64,000 nucleotides of DNA from Prorocentrum cordatum (GCA_963575745.1 CAUYUJ010000004.1:124001-188000); one strand, 5' to 3'. Positions 37,612-48,026 are shown, counted from the stretch's first letter. Numbers and translations: made by a program. Notes: generated by a model from the sequence alone, not told the origin.

Positions 37612-38367
37612 CGCTGGTGGGGAGACGCGAAGCGTCTAGAATTCCTCAGGCAGCACCTTTCAGCGGCCAGGCGACAGCCAGAGGGTGACCGCGAACCGGT
37701 CTTCATCGCTAGCATCAACGCGTTGCATCAGCGGACCAATCGCCCTGCCCACCCCCTGGTACATCCAGGAAAAGTCAGCCCCCTGGCATATCCAGGAACA
37801 GTCAGGTTCTACCGATCACAAGCTGCCTGGGGCGGCCTCCTGCAGGCTTTCCGACCTGCGGCTTCTTTTGGGCCGTCCCTTCAGAAAAAGTCTCCAGGCT
37901 TATCATGCCGTTCAACGCGCGGCACACCAGTGTTGGCGCCCTTTCTCTCCAGTGGGCTCCGTGGACAACTGGCACCCGTTCCGTTGCCTTTTTGTTAGGC
38001 CGCCGCGGGGTGTGCCCCAAGGTGGCGCTGTAACTGTCAGGGCGCCGTGTCACGTAGACCAAAGCGTGTGTACAGCTGGCGTCCGTCTGTCCGTGGGCGT
38101 GCAAATGGGGAGAGTCTCGCCATTTTCACTGCTTCCCGCTTTTGTTTTCCAGTCGGGGTCGCCACATACCGTGCCAGGGGAGGAGAGGGTAGTTTCCCCC
38201 GCCCCTGCTTCTCATGCGGGCCTCCCGCCGCAACAGGTGGGTGGGCGGGGCGGGGGCGAGTGCCCCACGCGCCTGGACGGGTTGCGATCTCCTCCTCCCT
38301 TTCCTCCTTCTCTTCCCTCGCTCCCTCCTTCCCTCCGTCACTCCTTCCTTCGCTCCTGCCCGCCTAG

Positions 38368-38441
38368 GTGATGGCCTTCCACGGCGAGCGCGACAGGCAG
38401 TGCCCGTTGGAGGCTGCGAGGGCTGGCTACGAGGGATTGAG
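38368..38441 (+). CDS. Exon of the carboxylesterase gene with the H-G-x-x-D catalytic Asp motif
   Basis: Pyrimidine-rich acceptor ...cgcctAG|GTG; translates VMAFHGERDRQCPLEAARAGYEGL(R); AG|GC donor at 38442. Confidence 0.75.
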
Positions 38442-38835
38442 GCGCCCCAAGCGGAGGGAGCGGGGCAGGAGGGGGCGGGAGGAGGAGGAGGAGGAGGAGG
38501 ACGAAAGGAAAAGGATGAGGAGGAAATTCTTCACGCTTCGCGTATCCCCACCAGCCCATCTCAAAACAGCAACTCTTGCGAAGCATGCCGACAGTCGTGT
38601 TTTTCAGGCGTGTTTCCGCCTGCCCCCGCATATCTCCCCTGTTCCTCCTTCCTCCCGCCTCCTTGTACATCCTCCTTGTGGTGGGAGCGGGAGAAGGACG
38701 AGGCGGAGGAGGAGGGAGAGAAAGCGGTGGGAGGCAAGAGGGATTTAGCGGAGACGACGACCACAGCGATGATCCTAACAACGACGACGCACCCGACGAC
38801 GACGACGATATCGACCGCGACGACGACGACGACCA

Positions 38836-38867
<32 letters not shown>

Positions 38868-38893
38868 TCGACGACGACGACGACGAAGGCGGC

Positions 38894-38925
<32 letters not shown>

Positions 38926-38926
<1 letters not shown>

Positions 38927-39539
38927 TGGTGGGAGTCGTTGGGGCCCCTCGTGGTGTGAGTCGTTCGGCCCCATCGTCCTTGTGTGAGTCCTTCGGGCCC
39001 CTCTTCCTGGTGTGAGTCGTTCGGGCTCCTCGTGGTGTGAGTCGTTCGGGCCCCTCGTCCTGGTGTGAGCCGTTCGGGCTCCTCGTGGTTCGAGTCGTTC
39101 GGGCCTCTCGTCCTGGTGTGAGTCGTTCGGGCCCTTCTTCCTGGTGTGAGTCGTTCGGGCTCTTCGTGGTGTGAGTCGTTCGGGCTCTTCGTCCTGGTGT
39201 GAGTCGTTCGGGCTTCTCGTGGTGTGAGTTGTTCGGGCCCCTCGTCCTGGTGTGAGTCGTTCGGGCCCCTCCTCCTGGTGTGACTCGTTCGGGCTCCTCG
39301 TGGTGTGAGTCGTTCGGGGCCCTCGTCCTGGTGTGAGTCGTTCGGGCTCCTCGTGGTGTGAGTCGTTCGGGCGCCTCGTCCTGGTGTGAGTCGTCGGGCC
39401 CTTCCTTCTGGTGTGAGTCGTTCGGGCTCTTCGTGGTGTGAGTCGTTCGGGCCCCTCGTCCTGGTGTGAGTCGTTCGGGCTCCTCGTGGTGTGAGGCGTT
39501 CGGGCACCTCGTCCTGGTGCGAGTCGTTCGGGCCCCTCG

Positions 39540-39540
<1 letters not shown>
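38926..39540. repeat. 25/28-bp minisatellite TGGTGTGAGTCGTTCGGGC(T/C)CCTCG(TCC)
   Basis: About 23 adjacent units with no unique spacers. Confidence 0.92.
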
Positions 39541-40070
<530 letters not shown>

Positions 40071-40529
40071 CTACAGTCGAACAGCTATCTCCGAACAGCA
40101 ACCCCAGCGAAGCATGCCGACAGTCGTTTGGTGCAGGCGTGTGTCTGCCTGCCTTCGCATATATCCTCTGTTCCTATTTCCTTCTGCCTCCTTGTACATC
40201 CTCCTTGTGGGGGAGCGCGAGGAGGACGAGTCGGAGGAGGAGGAGGGAGTGAAGGAGTTGGGAGGCAAGACAGAGGGCGGTCGTCGTCGAGTCCAGCGAT
40301 CTCCCCCGACCAGTTGTGCAGCGAACGTGGCTCGGCACGGATGCGCAGGACTCCCTCATCGCAAGGTGTGGGAACCATGCGCGTGATCTCTGCGCCGCTC
40401 GTAATGGCAAGGTGTGGTAACCCATCCGCGACGACGACGACGATGGCGAGCGATGAGGGCGACGACGACGACGACGGCGACGACGACGGGTCAACCAATA
40501 GGGCGTTTCTGGGCATTTCTCTCTGAAGG

Positions 40530-40687
40530 TGCTGGGAAGTTTGTAGTTTTACATATATATGTGATTATAGAGAATATAATCAGACTGTCCTGGAGGATCC
40601 AGGAAATCCTGCAGCCCTTTGTTGCTCGAGGAAAAGAGCGACCCTCACCTCCCCCCTTTCTCCGCGAGGGGGGTGGGTGCGCGTGCA
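40530..40687 (+). repeat. 5' LTR (158 bp)
   Basis: TGCTGGGAAG...GCGCGTGCA; identical by eye to 47456-47613. Confidence 0.96.
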
Positions 40688-40699
40688 TGGTAGCGGAGC
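40688..40699 (+). promoter_or_regulatory. Primer-binding site (initiator tRNA-Met type)
   Basis: TGGTAGCGGAGC immediately after the LTR; complementary to a tRNA 3' end ...GCUCCGCUACCA. Confidence 0.85.
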
Positions 40700-41119
40700 T
40701 CGCTTGAGGTTCGCGGGCCGCTCCGCACCCCAGCGAGCTCCAGGAGCCCCTCGAGAGGGCCCAGCGGCGCGACGCCGCGGGTCCGGCAGCCAGCGGGACG
40801 ATCCACGCGGCTGCCGAACGAAGTACCCCTTGCTGGTCAGAGCTGCGGTCAGACCCGCGCTCTGGCAGCGGAGGCCAGCCAGCCAACAAGGGCAAGGGCA
40901 AGGCCACGCTGAAGGCCAAGAAGCCGAACAAGCGAGGAGGCAGAGCGGCGGACACGCGTGAGCACCGCCAGCTACGAGGGACCGCTTTTAGGAAGCTTGC
41001 GGCGTGCGGCAGCAAGGCGAAGCTCACTCAGGAGGAGCGAGCAGCAGTGAAGAGGCAGCTGGCGAGCGACATCGAGAGGCTGGAGAAGCGTGTCACTGAC
41101 GTGCTCGACGACGACCAAG

Positions 41120-44100
41120 ATGGAGCAGCAGCTGCAGCAACTGGTCGATCAAGTTCAGAGACTGACGACGGAGAGTCAGAACATGAGGCAGGAGCTTCAG
41201 AACAGGGACGTGCAGATCGCAGAGATGAGAGGACAACTGCAGGGTCAGCAGCAGGCTCAGCAGCAGGCTCAGCAGCAGCGGGTAGCCCCGCGCGGCGAGA
41301 TGATGGATCCGAAGATCCTTCACAAGGTGAAGCCGTTCGACGGCCAAAGGTCAAGCTGGAAGACGTTCAGCTTCCAGTACAGAGCGTACCTGATCGCGCA
41401 GGATCGGAGGTACCGAGATCTTCTGGAAAGGTGCGAGGACGGAGCCCAGGAGGTGGACAACGTCAACCTGGACCCGCAGGAGGAAGAACTCAGCACGCAG
41501 TTGTACTACGGCCTGGTCCTGGCCATGCCCGAGGACTCGGTGGGCGAGCTGATCGTGAGGAACAGCCCAGTAGGAGAAGGAGCCGAGTGTTGGAGGAAGC
41601 TTCAGAAGGAGTACAACCCGAGCGAGGCAGGCAACGTACTGGCGATGTGGACCAAGCTCACGGACACGAAGTTCGACGCCAAGGAAGACGTGATGGTGAG
41701 CATCAGCAAGCTGGACGAGGACATGGCGAGGTACCAGAAGATGGCAGGAGAGGCCGTCTCGGACCTGATCAAGCGCGGCATCCTCACAAAGGCGCTGAAG
41801 GATCACGACGAGCTCCAGAAGCACGTGTTTCGGAACAGCAGTCGGTTAAGTACGTACGAGCTTCTGAGAGCCGAGGTGGTGTCGGCGTTGGCGGCAGAGC
41901 GAGCGGTTCAGGACGACCCGATGGAGATCGGAGCGCTGAAGGGCGGAAAGAGACCGTGGAAAGGCCGCGGCAAAGGGAAAGACGGCAAAGGCAAGGAGAA
42001 GCCACCGAATCCCGACGCCGAGATCGAGTGCCACTACTGCCACAAGAAGGGTCACCGCAGCGCAAACTGCCGAAAGCGGATCGCCGACGAGAAGAAGACA
42101 CCCGAGAAGGACAAGAAGGACAAGAAGCAGTTCCGAAAAGAGAAGGCAAAAGAAAAGAAGAAGATCGGGGCAGCGGCAGTCAGGGAGCTCGAAAGGTTAC
42201 GACAGACAGGAGTGGGCACAGGATCAAGCTCGACAGCACCGACACAACAGATGCTAGGAAGTCAGGGAAGCGCCGACAGCGCGATGACTCAGCAGGTGCT
42301 GCGCCCAGTCAACTGTGCGCTGCGAGCGAAGATGATTCTGGCCCTGAGGGCAGAGGTCACAAGAAGCGCAGCCACACGATCGACTGGAAGTACTGCTTGC
42401 CTAGCTACTACCAATATGTATGCTGCTCTTGCAAGAAGACCTTTGAAGGACGGCGATGGCACTACGATCAGTGGAAGCTGGACTACTGTGCCGTGTGTGC
42501 CGAGTACTGCCTGGACGGCCTCAAGGACGGGGAAGAGCCAGACGACGACAAGAAGCCAAAGAAGCGCAAGAAAGGCTAGATTCGTCGCTGACGACCGTCA
42601 GTGCTGCGATATGCCAGCTGCGGTGAGCCCCGCGCTGGCCGGCCCCAGGCCTGTTACCATCGCTGGTCTTCGGCCCGTGGATGAAGATCAGAGCCCTGCG
42701 GATGACCGATTGCGGTTAGCCCCGCTTCGGAATGCGATCATGCTCGATTCAGGTGCGCAGATCAGTGCGATACCGAGGTCACAGGTGACCAAGCACAACT
42801 ACACGCCGACGGACAGCAACGTTGTCGGCTTGAAGGGCATAGGAGGCGAGGAGATCGAGAGGTACGGCCACGTGGAGCTGAACCTATCCCGAGGAGGAGA
42901 GGTTATTCAAGTCGGTGCTGAGGTTGCCGATGTGGAGTACCCAGTTGTGGCTACAGACGCTGTAGTACAACGTGGTCAGAGTGTTCTTCATAGCCCTGCA
43001 GGTCACTGGATCATCAACGGTACCATCGAGCCACCTGATGGAGCTGAGTTCGTACCTCTACGTCGTCACCAAGGCAACTACTACTTAGAGTACGATCACA
43101 TCATCGACGGCCAGACTCAACCAGAAGCTTCAAAGGTAGCTGCGGTACGAAAGACACTACCAAGGAAGGTACCAGCTGAACAGGAAGCTGGAGCTTTGCC
43201 GAAGGTTCTAGGTCCCGAAGCTGATGAGACCACAACTGTGCCAACGAGAGTGTTGAAGACTCCTCACCAACCTAGTGCTGCGGAGAGAGCCGCGCACGAA
43301 GGGCATCATCTACCTTTTCGGCCTTGGTGTCCCATCTGCGTGCAGGCTCGAGCAGACGATGACCCCCACCACGCTCAGGAACCAGCTGATGAGAACAAGA
43401 TCCCGAAGGTGGTGTTCGACATCTTTTACGTAGGGACAGACCAGCTGGCTGCGAAGTACAAGCTTAAAGGAGGTTACTTCAGCATCAGGGAGAAGACGTC
43501 GGTCACGAAGGCCGAGTTAGACCAAGCGGTCTCTGTCTTGAATGTTATCGACTGTAAGATCTTGGCTCAGGCGACGTTGTACGCGAACAAGGAGACGGAT
43601 GACTACAAGGTGTCCTTCCTGCTAGGCGTGCTGGAAGCTTGGGGTCACACAACAGTCATACTTCAGACAGACCAGGAGCCTGCCACCATGGCTCTGGCGC
43701 AGGCAGTTCGAGATCGCAGATCACACTCAACCTTGGTGCGGGGATCACCGCCCTTTTCCAAGCAGAGTGCAGGCTACGCTGAAGGAGGTAACAAGCTAGC
43801 AGCTGGTCTACTTCGAGCCTACAAGCTGAAGCTGGAGCACAAGCTGGGCAGCGAGATCAAGATGACGGATCCGATCGTGCCATGGCTTGTGAACTCAGTG
43901 GGGTGGATGATCACCAGATTCCAGCCTCGCAGTCACGGAGGTTCCTCCTACAAGATGCTCTACGGCAAAGAGTACAACGGCGAGATTGCGGAGATGGGTG
44001 AGCAGGTCTGGTATCGGATCTCAGCCCGAGTTGCCGCGGGACGTGGCAAATGGGAAGCCCGCTTCGCAAAAGGAATCTGGGTTGGTAAGAGCGAGCTGGA

Positions 44101-44839
44101 CGACGCACATCTCGTGATCGATCCTGAACGTGGAGTGCAGAAGGTGAGAACGGTGCGAAGGATGCCTGAGGAGTTCAGGTGGCAGCCCGAGCTCATCCAG
44201 CACATCAGGGTGACGCCCTGGAAGCAGACGCCCGACAAGAGTTCAGGAACGATCGGACGCAGCATGTACATCACGGAGCGCATGATCGATGCTCATGGTC
44301 CTACCGACGATTGCAGGAAGTGCAGTACAGGATACGGTTCGCATTCGGCATCCTGCCGACAGCGTTTCGAGACCATTCAGGCCGACTTGCTGCGCGAGAA
44401 GTTGGCGAAGGACCCTGTGGCCCCTGAGGCTACAGTCGTGGTGCCAGCGCCGGCTGCGGGAAGCCCCGCGCCTGGAGCCGCACCCGGAGGAGCAGCGGCA
44501 TCAAGCAGCAGTGAGGTTGCGGTGAGCCCCGCACCTGCTGCCAGTGACGTAGCTATGGTTCCTGGCCCAGGAGAGGCTGAGGTGCAGACAGCCATGGACA
44601 CGGAGAGTGGAGAGCTCAGGAGCGACTTTCGGCGAAGCGCCCCAGGTGAAGTTCGTGAAGGAGCTGAGGTCAAGAAGCCCAGGGTAGCAAGCATTGGGCA
44701 TCTCTCTGTCTGTGAGTTGGCAGTCTGCGAGGAGGGCTACGACGAGAGCTTCGACCCCATGTGGGATCCACACCCAAAGCGCAGTGCGAGATGTTCCGAG
44801 AGGTGTGAGAAGCACTCATCACGATGCCAGCTACGATAA
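41120..44839 (+). CDS. Copia Gag-protease-integrase polyprotein, ending at a single in-frame TAA
   Basis: ATG at 41120; Gag PFDGQRSSW and AECWRKLQKEY; CCHC knuckle CHYCHKKGHRSANC; aspartic protease IMLDSGA; integrase H-x3-H...CPIC and D(VFDIF)-D(QTDQE)-E(GYAE). Confidence 0.93.
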   Translation: MEQQLQQLVDQVQRLTTESQNMRQELQNRDVQIAEMRGQLQGQQQAQQQAQQQRVAPRGEMMDPKILHKVKPFDGQRSSWKTFSFQYRAYLIAQDRRYRDLLERCEDGAQEVDNVNLDPQEEELSTQLYYGLVLAMPEDSVGELIVRNSPVGEGAECWRKLQKEYNPSEAGNVLAMWTKLTDTKFDAKEDVMVSISKLDEDMARYQKMAGEAVSDLIKRGILTKALKDHDELQKHVFRNSSRLSTYELLRAEVVSALAAERAVQDDPMEIGALKGGKRPWKGRGKGKDGKGKEKPPNPDAEIECHYCHKKGHRSANCRKRIADEKKTPEKDKKDKKQFRKEKAKEKKKIGAAAVRELERLRQTGVGTGSSSTAPTQQMLGSQGSADSAMTQQVLRPVNCALRAKMILALRAEVTRSAATRSTGSTACLATTNMYAALARRPLKDGDGTTISGSWTTVPCVPSTAWTASRTGKSQTTTRSQRSARKARFVADDRQCCDMPAAVSPALAGPRPVTIAGLRPVDEDQSPADDRLRLAPLRNAIMLDSGAQISAIPRSQVTKHNYTPTDSNVVGLKGIGGEEIERYGHVELNLSRGGEVIQVGAEVADVEYPVVATDAVVQRGQSVLHSPAGHWIINGTIEPPDGAEFVPLRRHQGNYYLEYDHIIDGQTQPEASKVAAVRKTLPRKVPAEQEAGALPKVLGPEADETTTVPTRVLKTPHQPSAAERAAHEGHHLPFRPWCPICVQARADDDPHHAQEPADENKIPKVVFDIFYVGTDQLAAKYKLKGGYFSIREKTSVTKAELDQAVSVLNVIDCKILAQATLYANKETDDYKVSFLLGVLEAWGHTTVILQTDQEPATMALAQAVRDRRSHSTLVRGSPPFSKQSAGYAEGGNKLAAGLLRAYKLKLEHKLGSEIKMTDPIVPWLVNSVGWMITRFQPRSHGGSSYKMLYGKEYNGEIAEMGEQVWYRISARVAAGRGKWEARFAKGIWVGKSELDDAHLVIDPERGVQKVRTVRRMPEEFRWQPELIQHIRVTPWKQTPDKSSGTIGRSMYITERMIDAHGPTDDCRKCSTGYGSHSASCRQRFETIQADLLREKLAKDPVAPEATVVVPAPAAGSPAPGAAPGGAAASSSSEVAVSPAPAASDVAMVPGPGEAEVQTAMDTESGELRSDFRRSAPGEVREGAEVKKPRVASIGHLSVCELAVCEEGYDESFDPMWDPHPKRSARCSERCEKHSSRCQLR

Positions 44840-46207
44840 TGCCACCAAGCTGAGTGTGCATGCAGGAGATGTTTGATGAGCCACATCGGCACAATCAGGA
44901 GCCACTTCGGAGATCCTGAGGAGCAGCAGGTGGAGCAGATGGTTGAGGTGAGCGCCGAGCTGCATGAGAAAGACCAGTGGAGCCCAAAGACGATACACTA
45001 TGATTACTACACTGGAGAGCCTCTGGATGAGGACCTGTATCAGAAGGGTCGCGACGACGAGCTGCAGGCCATGAAGGACTACGGGGTCTACGTGGAAGTG
45101 GCGACATCGACGGCGACCGACGGCAAGCACATTGGAGGTTTCCCGATAGCCCACATGAAAGAAGGAAAGGTCAGGTGGAGGTTCGTAGCGACCGAGGTGA
45201 ACAAGTACGAGGTCAGGGAGGACAACCACCAAGGCACGCCCCCGCTCATGATCGTCAGAGCGACGCTGAGCCGTGCCGCTTCAAGTCCAACTTCCAGCGG
45301 GCAGCACCTGCGGAAGATACAAGTCTGGGACGTCAGGAAGGCTTTCTTCAACGCTGACTTAGACGAGACGATCTACGTGCATCCTGGGAGAGAGCTGTGT
45401 CCGCCTGGAAGGTGCTGGTGGTTACGCAAGGCCATGAACGGTACCAGGAAGGCGTCGCAGATGTGGGGTGAGCTTGTGAGAACTACTATGGACGACGGCC
45501 ATTGGGAATGCTTGGTTGGAACTCCTAACGTGTTCTACTTACCTGCTAGCCCCAACACAGCCCCCTTCGACGAGGATAGCACAGCGATCTGCCATGGCGA
45601 TGACTTTCTTGCTGAAGGCTACGACGAGCAGCTGGACGAGCTGGACGAGTTGTTGAAGCAGCAGTTTGAGGTCACGGCCAGCGCCAGACTTGGACCAGGA
45701 GCGGTGGGGCAGACTACATACCTCAAGAGGACGATCGGCTACACCGACAAGTTGCCAGGTTGCGAGGAGCCAGGTTTCTTCTGGACTGCCGATCCCAAGC
45801 ATGTGGACTTCATGATCAAGTGGACGCAGAAGCGAGGTTGTAAACCAGCTCCCACTCCAGGGACGAAAGCTACAGGACAAGGCCGACGAGACAGCCTAGA
45901 CCTTCTTTCCAAGGATCGTGCTCGAGAAGTGGCGGGTGCAGCTGGCACCGCTCTTTACCTTTCTTCGGACAGGCCCGACACGATGTACGCCAGCAAGACA
46001 GCGATGCAGCACGTCTCCAACCCGAACGTCTTGATGCATGCGCGTGTTCAGCGACTTGGAAGGTACTACGAAGGACAGCCTGTGTTGGTCTGGTGTTACC
46101 CACTTCAAGGTACTCCTGAAGGCATTCGTGTAGATGGTGACGCGGATTGGGCACCTACGAGTGAACTACAGCGGCGATCTACCAGTGGAGGAGCTGTGAG
46201 GTATGGG
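44840..46207 (+). CDS. Copia reverse transcriptase and start of RNase H, in the same frame as Gag-IN
   Basis: DVRKAFFNADL, LRKAMNGTRKA, ICHGDDFL (YxDD equivalent), VDGDADWA...RRSTSGG. Confidence 0.93.
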
Positions 46208-47244
46208 ATCACACTTGGGACTGCTACTCAGTGACGCAGAGTACGATAGCCCTAAGTTCAGGGGAATCCGAGATGTACGCTACGGGAAGTGCGACAGCCA
46301 GAGGACTTCAGTGTAAGACTTACCTGATCGAGACCCAGAGGCCCTGCAACCTGAAGATCTATAGTGACAGCACAGCTGGACGTGGCATGTGCAGTCGAGT
46401 TGGGGTGGGCAAGGTCAGGCACCTGGAGTTGAGGTACTTGTGGATTCAGGAGCGGTTGCGTCTCAAGGCGTTCGAGCTGCACAAGGAGGACACCAGCAAG
46501 ATGACAGCCGACATGCTCACGAAGTACAGCGAGTGGCCGACAATCGAGAAGCATTGCACCACTCTCAACCTCAGGTTCGGAAAGCAGTTGAAGGGCTTGA
46601 GCGCAATGGCAGTTTTCACGGAGGTCGTGACGAAGGCGTCAGGCGAGAAGGTGACAGTGTACGGAGGTTCTGACGAGGTTGCGGTTTGCCCCGCGCCTGT
46701 CAGCCACTACGTGGACAGCGAGGAGTTCTGGTTCTTCCTGAAGTTGGGACTAGTTGTGGTGACTGCAGCCAGTGCTTTCTTACTGGGGTGCTGGTGTGGT
46801 TGTTACTTCAAGGACTTCTACGACAAGTTCCTCCTCCAGGGTGCGGTTGACCCCGCCTCTGGAAGCACGTGTATACCATCTGCGCGGGCTGAGGCCGAGT
46901 TCAAGACCGTGTGTGTACAGCAGGACAAAGGAGCAAGGCACAAGCTCTTAAGCACGTTTCTTGTAGCTGAGCTGCGAGCTGTCTTGAAGGCCAAGAGCCT
47001 GGCCGTGTCAGGGATCAAGGAGGACCTGGTCACGAGGATGATCAAGCACGGATGCGTTCTGTCGGATCGCCAGGCCAAGGAGATCGAGCAGCTGCGAGTG
47101 ATGGCTACAGCGCGAGGACCTCTTACCAAGCTCAGCTTGCAGGACATCAGCAGTCCAGAGGCCGCGCAGAAGTGGATCGAGACGTTCAAGAGCGAGTGCG
47201 GAGACCGTTCCAGAGGCTCTCAGGTGATCCACGGAGAGGGCTAG
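46207..47244 (+). CDS. Remainder of RNase H after a 1-nt frameshift, plus a ~220-aa extension with a TM helix and SAP-like motif
   Basis: DHTWDCYSVTQSTIALSSGESE, IYSDS, RHLELRYLWIQE, ADMLTK; then FWFFLKLGLVVVTAASAFLLGCWCGCYF and LSTFLVAELRAVLKAKSLAVSGIKEDLVTRM. Confidence 0.88.
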   Translation, partial: DHTWDCYSVTQSTIALSSGESEMYATGSATARGLQCKTYLIETQRPCNLKIYSDSTAGRGMCSRVGVGKVRHLELRYLWIQERLRLKAFELHKEDTSKMTADMLTKYSEWPTIEKHCTTLNLRFGKQLKGLSAMAVFTEVVTKASGEKVTVYGGSDEVAVCPAPVSHYVDSEEFWFFLKLGLVVVTAASAFLLGCWCGCYFKDFYDKFLLQGAVDPASGSTCIPSARAEAEFKTVCVQQDKGARHKLLSTFLVAELRAVLKAKSLAVSGIKEDLVTRMIKHGCVLSDRQAKEIEQLRVMATARGPLTKLSLQDISSPEAAQKWIETFKSECGDRSRGSQVIHGEG

Positions 47245-47446
47245 GAGAATGGTCGCAGGAAGCACTACGACAGCCGAAGGTGAGCTTTCTTTTACAGGCT
47301 GCGGTTTGCCCCGCGCCTGCCCTCTGCGGGTAGCCCCGCGATGGGCTTAGGCGGGCAGCGCCGTTGCGAAGCCTGCTCAGGGAGCACAAAGTGGTTTCCC
47401 TGTGGCTCACGTTTCTCGACTGGAGGCCGAGCCGCTTCCAGCGCCC

Positions 47447-47455
47447 AAGGAGAGG
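47447..47455 (+). promoter_or_regulatory. Polypurine tract
   Basis: AAGGAGAGG abutting the 3' LTR. Confidence 0.85.
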
Positions 47456-47613
47456 TGCTGGGAAGTTTGTAGTTTTACATATATATGTGATTATAGAGAA
47501 TATAATCAGACTGTCCTGGAGGATCCAGGAAATCCTGCAGCCCTTTGTTGCTCGAGGAAAAGAGCGACCCTCACCTCCCCCCTTTCTCCGCGAGGGGGGT
47601 GGGTGCGCGTGCA
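47456..47613 (+). repeat. 3' LTR (158 bp)
   Basis: Matches the 5' LTR and is followed by the TSD GAAGG. Confidence 0.96.
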
Positions 47614-48026
47614 GAAGGCATAGTTCGGAGATTGGCAGTGAGCTTAGCTCTGCCCATCCAGCAACCTGTTCGACCAGTTGTGCAGTGATATCTAGAGACC
47701 GCCAGCGGGCTACACCACACCAAGAACCAAAAACCAAGAAAGGAACCAAGAGCCAGCAAAGGCGAGATTGGAGGAATCAGCAAAGGAGAGATTTCAGGAT
47801 CCACACCGCACTGCACCGCACTACACCACCCCGCACGAATACCACGCCACACCGCACCACGCCGCACCACGCCGCACCGCACCACACTAGACACCACTTC
47901 TCACCAGTACGCACCATCAGACGACGACACTACAGCTCAAGAGGCCCCCAGGAAGCGCCACGAGGTCACCGAGGCTCTCAGGAGAGGCCCAAGTCTCTAT
48001 TTTCCTCCAGCGTTGTCGTCGTTGTT

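Follow-up and report, generated by a model that had tools for sequence, protein, structure and literature searches.

In the DNA analysed here, a window of 64,000 nucleotides from the dinoflagellate Prorocentrum cordatum (GCA_963575745.1 CAUYUJ010000004.1:124001-188000), a single Ty1/copia retrotransposon with long terminal repeats (LTRs) at positions 40530-47613 (7,084 bp) carries 13 copies of a small hairpin that is built around the dyad GCGG-N6-CCGC. The constraint that maintains these hairpins acts on the nucleic acid, and the signal is specific for the sense strand, which is the strand of the genomic RNA. The element is organised as follows:

40530..40687, + strand: 5' LTR, 158 bp, TG..CA ends, 100% identical to 47456-47613
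40688..40699, + strand: putative primer-binding site TGGTAGCGGAGC, abutting the 5' LTR, assigned from its position and its TGG start
40708..42579, + strand: overlapping open frame that extends over the leader and the whole of gag (stop codon 42577-42579); the translation is rich in Arg, Gly and Glu and has a Cys-rich finger and a basic tail
41120..47244, + strand: coding region for Gag, protease, integrase, reverse transcriptase (RT), RNase H, a transmembrane segment and a SAP domain, from open reading frames (ORFs) and Pfam (Retrotran_gag_2, RVT_2, SAP)
47445..47455, + strand: putative polypurine tract, abutting the 3' LTR, assigned from its position
47456..47613, + strand: 3' LTR, 158 bp, 100% match to the 5' LTR

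The LTRs, a 5-bp target-site duplication (GAAGG, abutting 40530 on the left and 47613 on the right), the putative primer-binding site and polypurine tract and the domain order Gag-protease-integrase-RT-RNase H place the element among the Ty1/copia retrotransposons. The Pfam matches to Retrotran_gag_2 (E 1.1e-4) and RVT_2 (E 1.1e-6) are both under the gathering score, and relatives carry PF07727. The protease DSG, the HHCC finger of the integrase and its D,D35E residues were read by eye from the translation, with no Pfam match for D,D35E. Related proteins are referred to below by P numbers; the nearest of them have Prorocentrum cordatum as source name, and the reads of four DNA runs (40 of 792 variant rows examined) indicate a high-copy family. 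The copy in the window is young but not intact, since its LTRs are identical while an in-frame stop lies between integrase and RT (44837-44839, where the paralogues P0001 and P0048 read through) and the frame is broken near 46206. At the latter position, most contigs of three of the four DNA runs show a one-letter difference. The polyprotein ends with a tail (46700-47241) in which a SAP domain (Pfam E 8.8e-6) comes after a transmembrane segment. This tail is kept in the relatives P0047, P0049 and P0052, whereas in the clade of P0008, P0015 and P0040 the sequence past the second hairpin looks different.

An earlier note on this DNA had described about ten copies of the dyad in the element. All ten positions are real, with cores that begin one base later than given there (40713, 40845, 41278, 42620, 42712, 44456, 44519, 46681, 47301 and 47326) and with loop sequences as written in the note, but the full count is 13 because the copies at 46843, 43280 and 43738 had been missed. 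Against dinucleotide-shuffled sequence, a control that the note had proposed, the 13 sites in the element compare with 0.176 expected, and none of 2000 shuffles reached this number. In the whole window we counted 20 sites versus 1.71 expected (0 of 100 shuffles reached 20). The asymmetric form GCGG-N4-CCCCGC occurs nine times on the + strand of the element, where 0.008 occurrences are expected, and its reverse complement occurs once. Among the 42 perfect hairpins with a 4-bp stem and a 6-nt loop in the element, 13 have the stem GCGG, while no other stem occurs more than twice. Bit scores given here derive from a covariance model that was trained on these copies, so that their own match follows by construction and the informative results are the contrast between the strands and the silence outside the element. 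The other seven sites of the window consist of simple GC-rich sequence and score at most 13.4 bits, and nowhere in the 57 kb that flank the element is this value exceeded, which, for this one window, argues against a genome-wide mini-element of the REP or RPE type. The 13 hairpins are:

40695..40742 (core 40713-40726), + strand: variant hairpin topping a long leader stem; C replaces the bulged U; 26.4 bits
40836..40866 (core 40845-40858), + strand: leader hairpin; 8-bp lower stem, bulged U, loop UCAGAC; 31.5 bits on the + strand versus 8.8 on the - strand
41275..41293 (core 41278-41291), + strand: hairpin near the Gag N-terminus; GCGGG/CCCGC stem, loop UAGC; reads RVAPR
42613..42639 (core 42620-42633), + strand: hairpin ahead of the protease, beginning 33 nt past the stop of the gag-overlapping frame; 6-bp lower stem; reads AVSPA; 37.3 bits
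42706..42730 (core 42712-42725), + strand: hairpin about nine codons ahead of the protease DSG; reads RLAPL
43275..43297 (core 43280-43293), + strand: hairpin ahead of the integrase zinc finger; GUGC/GCAC lower stem, loop AGAGAG; 27.4 bits
43735..43753 (core 43738-43751), + strand: weakest copy, in the putative integrase core; 2-bp lower stem, atypical loop GGAUCA; 25.4 bits
44452..44472 (core 44456-44469), + strand: first hairpin of the integrase-RT linker; reads AGSPA
44514..44536 (core 44519-44532), + strand: second hairpin of the integrase-RT linker; reads AVSPA
46676..46698 (core 46681-46694), + strand: hairpin between RNase H and the transmembrane segment; reads AVCPA
46835..46863 (core 46843-46856), + strand: hairpin between the transmembrane segment and SAP; 7-bp lower stem including G-U; reads AVDPA
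47295..47319 (core 47301-47314), + strand: first hairpin of the 3' untranslated region (UTR); 37.5 bits
47319..47346 (core 47326-47339), + strand: second 3' UTR hairpin; GCGGG/CCCGC stem, loop UAGC, outer GCCC/GGGC stem

The two weakest copies are those at 43280, which lies seven codons ahead of the HH..CC finger of the integrase and is retained in close relatives only, and at 43738, which may be a chance match. The statement of the earlier note that no copy lies inside a catalytic core is nearly right, but it does not hold strictly because the copy at 43738 is located between the second Asp and the Glu of the putative D,D35E core. Core and flank are identical over 20 nt between the copies at 46680-46699 and 47300-47319, and this pair brackets the transmembrane-SAP module together with the stop codon. 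After a hypothetical deletion between these two stretches, the open frame would run up to the UAG that the loop of the hairpin at 47326 contains (ORF 46971..47333).

In each copy, the dyad forms the top of a hairpin of about 25 nt, which consists of a copy-specific lower stem, a bulged U on the 5' side, the 4-bp GCGG/CCGC stem and the loop. The loop is a hexaloop of the form (U/G)N-A-G-C-C that mostly ends with AGCC; a G as fifth base lengthens the stem to five base pairs (GCGGG/CCCGC), which close a 4-nt loop. Lower stems differ widely, with CAGAGC/GCUCUG, CCAGC/GCUGG, AGGU/ACCU and CCAGGG/CUCUGG as examples. When ten copies were folded in isolation (nine segments), the hairpin was obtained in all of them and the flanks lengthened the stem in most, and the minimum-energy folds of the 201-nt leader and of the 216-nt 3' UTR also contain their hairpins. 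Allowing a 1-nt 5' bulge, the lower stem has a mean length of 3.69 bp with a copy's own flanks and of 1.22 bp with swapped flanks, a difference that was not matched in any of 20000 permutations. When the 13 copies are aligned without gaps, 74.4% of the cells are paired, versus 66.4% after shuffling and 38-54% when the partner strand is slid, and the covariation score of 0.323 compares with 0.161 for shuffled alignments (0 of 500 reached the observed value). Of the lower pairs, the four that adjoin the core are present in 12, 12, 10 and 11 of the 13 copies and have changed on both sides in 4, 2, 3 and 7 copies, respectively. Such both-side changes, which are expected of a selected structure, were counted at all eight lower-stem pairs, and the four core pairs are invariant. 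The copies compared are paralogous ones within one element, a few of them sharing flanks, and the covariation is therefore not orthologous. With its covarying lower stems and its folds, the multi-copy RNA hairpin that the earlier note had proposed as one possibility is borne out. A search of Rfam 15 returned five weak matches, all far under the gathering scores and none at a hairpin, and GNRA hairpins occur in the element not at all on the sense strand and once on the antisense strand.

The structure is also asymmetric. In 11 of the 13 copies the base before the core is T, whereas the base after it is A in only two, and the covariance model gives 25-37 bits at the copies on the + strand versus 8-11 bits on the - strand. 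Some of the lower-stem pairs are G-U, which would become mismatches if the other strand were the folded one. Together with the excess of the asymmetric form on the + strand, the model scores and the position of the bulged U show the strand bias that the note had wanted checked.

Two explanations that do without an RNA structure have to be weighed against these results. The dyad might be a double-stranded DNA site for a dimeric protein, as the earlier note considered in view of the CGG-N6-CCG geometry, or else the provirus might bear it as a CpG methylation mark, and the 4+4 core is indeed a perfect palindrome with constant spacing. Zn2Cys6 factors are known from fungi; their sites resemble the feature in having inverted CGG triplets with six bases between them, but they are symmetric duplex sites that depend neither on the strand nor on the flanks, whereas the feature of the element is strand-asymmetric, has covarying flanks and resides in a dinoflagellate. 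The bulged 5' U in 11 of 13 copies, the AGCC at the 3' end of the loop, the score gap between the strands and the G-U pairs leave the proposed Zn2Cys6-type site unsupported, and complementarity between flanks whose sequence is not conserved plays no part in the recognition of a duplex. A site of this kind is scarcely credible in our judgement. Alternatively, the conserved entity could be a peptide, for example an A-V-S-P-A-P linker motif cleaved by the protease of the element, with the likeness of the DNA being secondary. The location of the copies at domain boundaries and the conservation of peptide islands in relatives would agree with this idea. However, the nine coding copies in the gag-pol frame are read in two phases, six of them as A-[V/G]-x-P-A and three as R-x-A-P-x, which are unrelated peptides, as the note had recognised, and further copies lie outside the gag-pol frame, in the leader and the 3' UTR. 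When synonymous codons were shuffled such that the protein and the codon usage were kept, another control named in the note, a mean of 0.52 sites and a maximum of 4 were obtained, and none of 5000 shuffles reached nine. The note's claim that the constraint acts on the nucleic acid rather than on the protein is thereby upheld. In addition, the central residue of the peptide varies non-conservatively (S, C, G, D, N or T), and at the site past the transmembrane segment P0025 reads RLAPL in a shifted frame and P0040, from the same clade, AVSPA, which suggests, assuming the same DNA in both, that the codons are fixed to the hairpin core. We therefore regard a peptide signal as highly improbable and, as primary cause, as excluded by the synonymous shuffling.

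Conservation beyond this copy was judged from the translated peptide footprints of the hairpins in protein relatives. Among 60 related proteins, we counted 39 occurrences of the phase-0 footprint versus 6.4 in shuffled sequences and 19 of the phase-2 footprint versus 3.0; since the proteins are related to one another, these are not independent counts. Footprints in the corresponding linkers are found in P0049 (79% identity), P0054, P0009, P0011, P0003, P0047, P0053 and the clade of P0015, P0040 and P0042. Ahead of the protease, the footprint is present in P0049 and P0056, with RLAPL kept in P0049, P0054, P0055 and P0056, and past the integrase it is present in P0049, P0053, P0009, P0011 and P0054. 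P0049, P0047, P0003, P0053 and P0061-P0064 have it on both sides of the transmembrane segment, the P0015/P0040/P0042 clade only on the far side. As peptide islands, the footprints can be followed down to relatives with about 50-60% identity, in linkers whose other parts have diverged. At the site past the transmembrane segment (46843), the five motif residues have a conservation of 0.73 compared to 0.19 for the 24 flanking residues, which are the least conserved flanks in the alignment. At the site ahead of the transmembrane segment (46681), the corresponding values are 0.65 and 0.40. The variation of the middle residue past the transmembrane segment is what a loop with free bases would give.

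Flank conservation is in the lower quarter for five of the nine coding copies. A structure of 14-25 nt fixes 5-8 codons, which is tolerable only where the constraint on the protein is poor, and thus the copies are found in the leader, the linkers and the 3' UTR. Tolerance of the linkers, as opposed to the catalytic cores, is the simplest account of the placement at domain boundaries.

DNA relatives were sought in several collections. Queries with the proteins retrieved none from the viral collection and none from the prokaryote genome collection, and the protein-alignment search of metagenomes retrieved one locus of 1,021 bp with 38% identity that has no hairpin match (best 9.8 bits). The pattern search with a single hairpin returned seven viral loci, each with only its own model match apart from one extra weak match on the opposite strand in L003, and the search with two hairpins returned at least 120 prokaryote and 99 viral loci. 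Since tblastn of the element proteins against 227 loci, with the prokaryote set again standing for at least 120, gave a match to L001 only, the loci found by pattern are unrelated GC-rich sequence. Pairs of GCGG-N4-CCCCGC are common in GC-rich contigs of prokaryotes and viruses, L134, L159 and L204 among them, and some pattern loci form periodic arrays that are unrelated to the element, such as the five matches in steps of about 84-96 nt in L159.

A further feature of the element is the frame that overlaps gag. It has no stop in 486 codons, where 13.7 ± 2.8 are expected, and none of 5000 synonymous shuffles left it open, whereas over pol it contains 31 stops in 745 codons. There is no ATG for this frame in the present copy, but the model of the paralogue P0050 starts with a Met in the leader, and P0059, which belongs to another clade, reads the overlapping frame as well. 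The frame looks like a gene overprinted on gag, and its product is a candidate for an accessory protein that binds the hairpins. Pfam contains no family for its Cys-rich finger (best match Zn_ribbon_8, E 0.28), and the label 'ZZ-like' used in the earlier note could not be confirmed.

Outside the element, a very long trinucleotide array of the GTA/TAC type lies directly upstream at about 38300-40100, with repeats of a period of about 30 amino acids interspersed in the translation. Downstream, a unit of about 26 nt occurs three times between 47634 and 48323 (at 47634, 48055 and 48298), and a repeat of the CACCGCAC type with a 10-nt period occupies 47801-47902.

Considering these results together, we favour the interpretation that the hairpins serve as multiple binding sites for an element-encoded protein that selects the full-length genomic RNA, and we assign it a probability of roughly 0.38. 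The hairpin is present 11-13 times in the sense strand, and hence the genomic RNA, of a young Ty1/copia element, and in this scheme one RNA-binding protein of the element would read all copies. The reader would most likely be Gag, via its CCHC knuckle, or otherwise the Arg-rich, finger-bearing product of the overlapping frame, and it would pick the element's own full-length RNA from the cellular RNA for particle assembly. A use in protein binding, and a multivalent one, is suggested by the constant stem, the bulge, the fixed letters of the loop, the free sequence of the lower stem, the restriction to a single strand and the large number of copies. The array has the properties of dispersed packaging signals, namely several stem-loops with a common motif that are distributed along the genomic RNA on one strand only. 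Two more specific functions were considered. Stimulation of frameshifting was dropped, with no slippery heptamer seen upstream of 41278 and 42620, the copies whose upstream sequence was read, and complementarity of the loops to the host spliced leader or to the tRNA primer would fit at most two loops.

Several observations speak against a selected packaging signal. Pairs of copies are only 25, 63, 92 and 162 nt apart, and local duplications could be the origin of the codons that the copies have in common. The array is uneven, with no copy in the 2.1-kb RT-RNase H stretch or in the 1.3-kb Gag core, and two of its members, those at 43280 and 43738, coincide with conserved parts of the protein and are missing in relatives at greater distance. 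The evidence for conservation consists of peptides only, not of the DNA of diverged relatives. Conservation in diverged copies, which the earlier note had made a test of its proposal, is accordingly seen as footprints down to about 50-60% identity, but P0057, P0058 and P0060, at 41-52% identity, have no clear footprints.

The same RNA hairpins might fulfil another role, either as elements for export, stability or translation that resemble Rev/RRE or CERV, or as ribosome pause sites at the ends of domains. We consider such a role rather unlikely, even though the evidence from structure, covariation, codons and strand fits it equally well. The open overlapping frame, with an Arg-rich product that has a basic tail, would suit it too, as the binders of bulged hairpins are often Arg-rich. 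A precedent for a retrotransposon accessory protein is CERV of the Cer1 element in C. elegans, which, according to the available text of its description, is needed for the export of genomic RNA (PMC10309623). On the other hand, the overlapping-frame protein belongs to no Pfam family and nothing links it to RNA, its frame lacks an ATG in this copy, and export elements usually occur in one or two copies near an end and not a dozen times. A very unlikely function is that of splice or spliced-leader signals, with the hairpins marking donors, acceptors or trans-splice points for subgenomic mRNAs. An AG lies no more than 5 nt upstream of 8 of the 13 copies and AG|GT precedes those at 44519 and 46681, but this AG belongs to the semi-conserved CAGG/CCUG lower stem, and the copies at 42712, 43738 and 47326 have none. 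Just before the copy at 47301, an intron-like GTGAG...TTTCTTTTACAG, that is GTGAG, a pyrimidine run and ACAG, occupies 47281-47298 and could be an intron relic or a working acceptor. The automated gene model of the paralogue P0001 leaves out 46678-46923, running from a GT at the hairpin base to an AG, and the P0048 model skips the linker that holds the copies at 44456 and 44519; however, these gene models patch frames implausibly, as for example in P0002. Copia elements of plants and flies with a single ORF produce their Gag mRNA by splicing, and splicing is reported as the expression strategy of copia in the accessible parts of the respective papers (PMC5580714, PMC3735527). It is similarly improbable that the hairpins are a by-product of recombination or duplication, i.e. 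a GC-rich repeat that was spread by slippage or by template switching of RT and represents module joints or nothing. The occurrence of copies in close pairs, the identical 20-nt stretches on both sides of the transmembrane-SAP module and its stop codon and the extra copies in the same linkers of P0049 would be explained in this way. In contrast, the contigs of the four DNA runs show no hairpin-to-hairpin joint and none of the six listed joints is at a hairpin, the lower stems remain paired although they differ in sequence, and the footprints hold their position down to about 50-60% identity as the linkers around them diverge.

Extending the packaging interpretation, we tentatively suggest that each dinoflagellate copia family has its own hairpin 'barcode' that is read by its Gag or by the Arg-rich product overprinted on gag. 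Should this be the case, each family would capture only its own RNA in a nucleus with hundreds of competing retroelement families, barcode and reader would co-evolve, and the linkers of the polyprotein would have a second use as places for RNA signals. Outside yeast and the retroviruses, little is known about the way in which LTR retrotransposons select their own RNA, and in dinoflagellate genomes very many copia families exist side by side. A strand-specific hairpin that is repeated about a dozen times over codons would make a compact cis signal that can be tested, and it would demonstrate that the linkers between polyprotein domains can take their form from RNA structure instead of from the protein. 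The hairpin also provides a sequence handle for the classification of elements and for finding the reader protein.

Among known protein-binding RNAs, HIV-1 TAR and the iron-responsive element are bulged hairpins that occur in single or few copies in untranslated regions. The hairpin of the element is built in the same way, with a lower stem, a bulge on the 5' side, a short upper stem (4-5 bp) and a hexaloop that contains fixed letters, but it has no sequence likeness to either of them, and there is no Rfam match. The carrier itself is of the same class as SmTCL, a dinoflagellate Ty1/copia element from Symbiodinium (PMC5776459), given its LTRs, its 5-bp duplication, its order protease-integrase-RT and its matches to RVT_2 and a copia-type gag. 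The hairpin array, the gag-overlapping frame and the transmembrane-SAP tail are not mentioned for SmTCL in the available text of that paper. With Rev/RRE and CERV, as far as the accessible description of the latter goes, the parallel would be an accessory protein that acts on unspliced genomic RNA, for which the Arg-rich overlapping frame is the candidate counterpart. The RRE is one large structure, whereas the hairpins of the element form an array, and the product of the overlapping frame is putative. The favoured interpretation has its parallel in the dispersed packaging signals that are reported, in the text available for these systems, for single-stranded RNA viruses such as MS2, STNV and parechovirus and for the HBV pregenome (PMC6281560, PMC4836477). 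In the literature on retrotransposon structure and packaging, we found no description of such hairpin arrays in retrotransposons in the text that was accessible. To the extent that these sources describe them, the viral signals and the hairpins of the element are both sets of many small stem-loops with a common motif that lie on one strand, in coding and non-coding regions and over codons. The element differs by its constant stem, the location of about a dozen copies in linkers, the LTR retrotransposon as carrier and a contact with the coat protein that is only putative.

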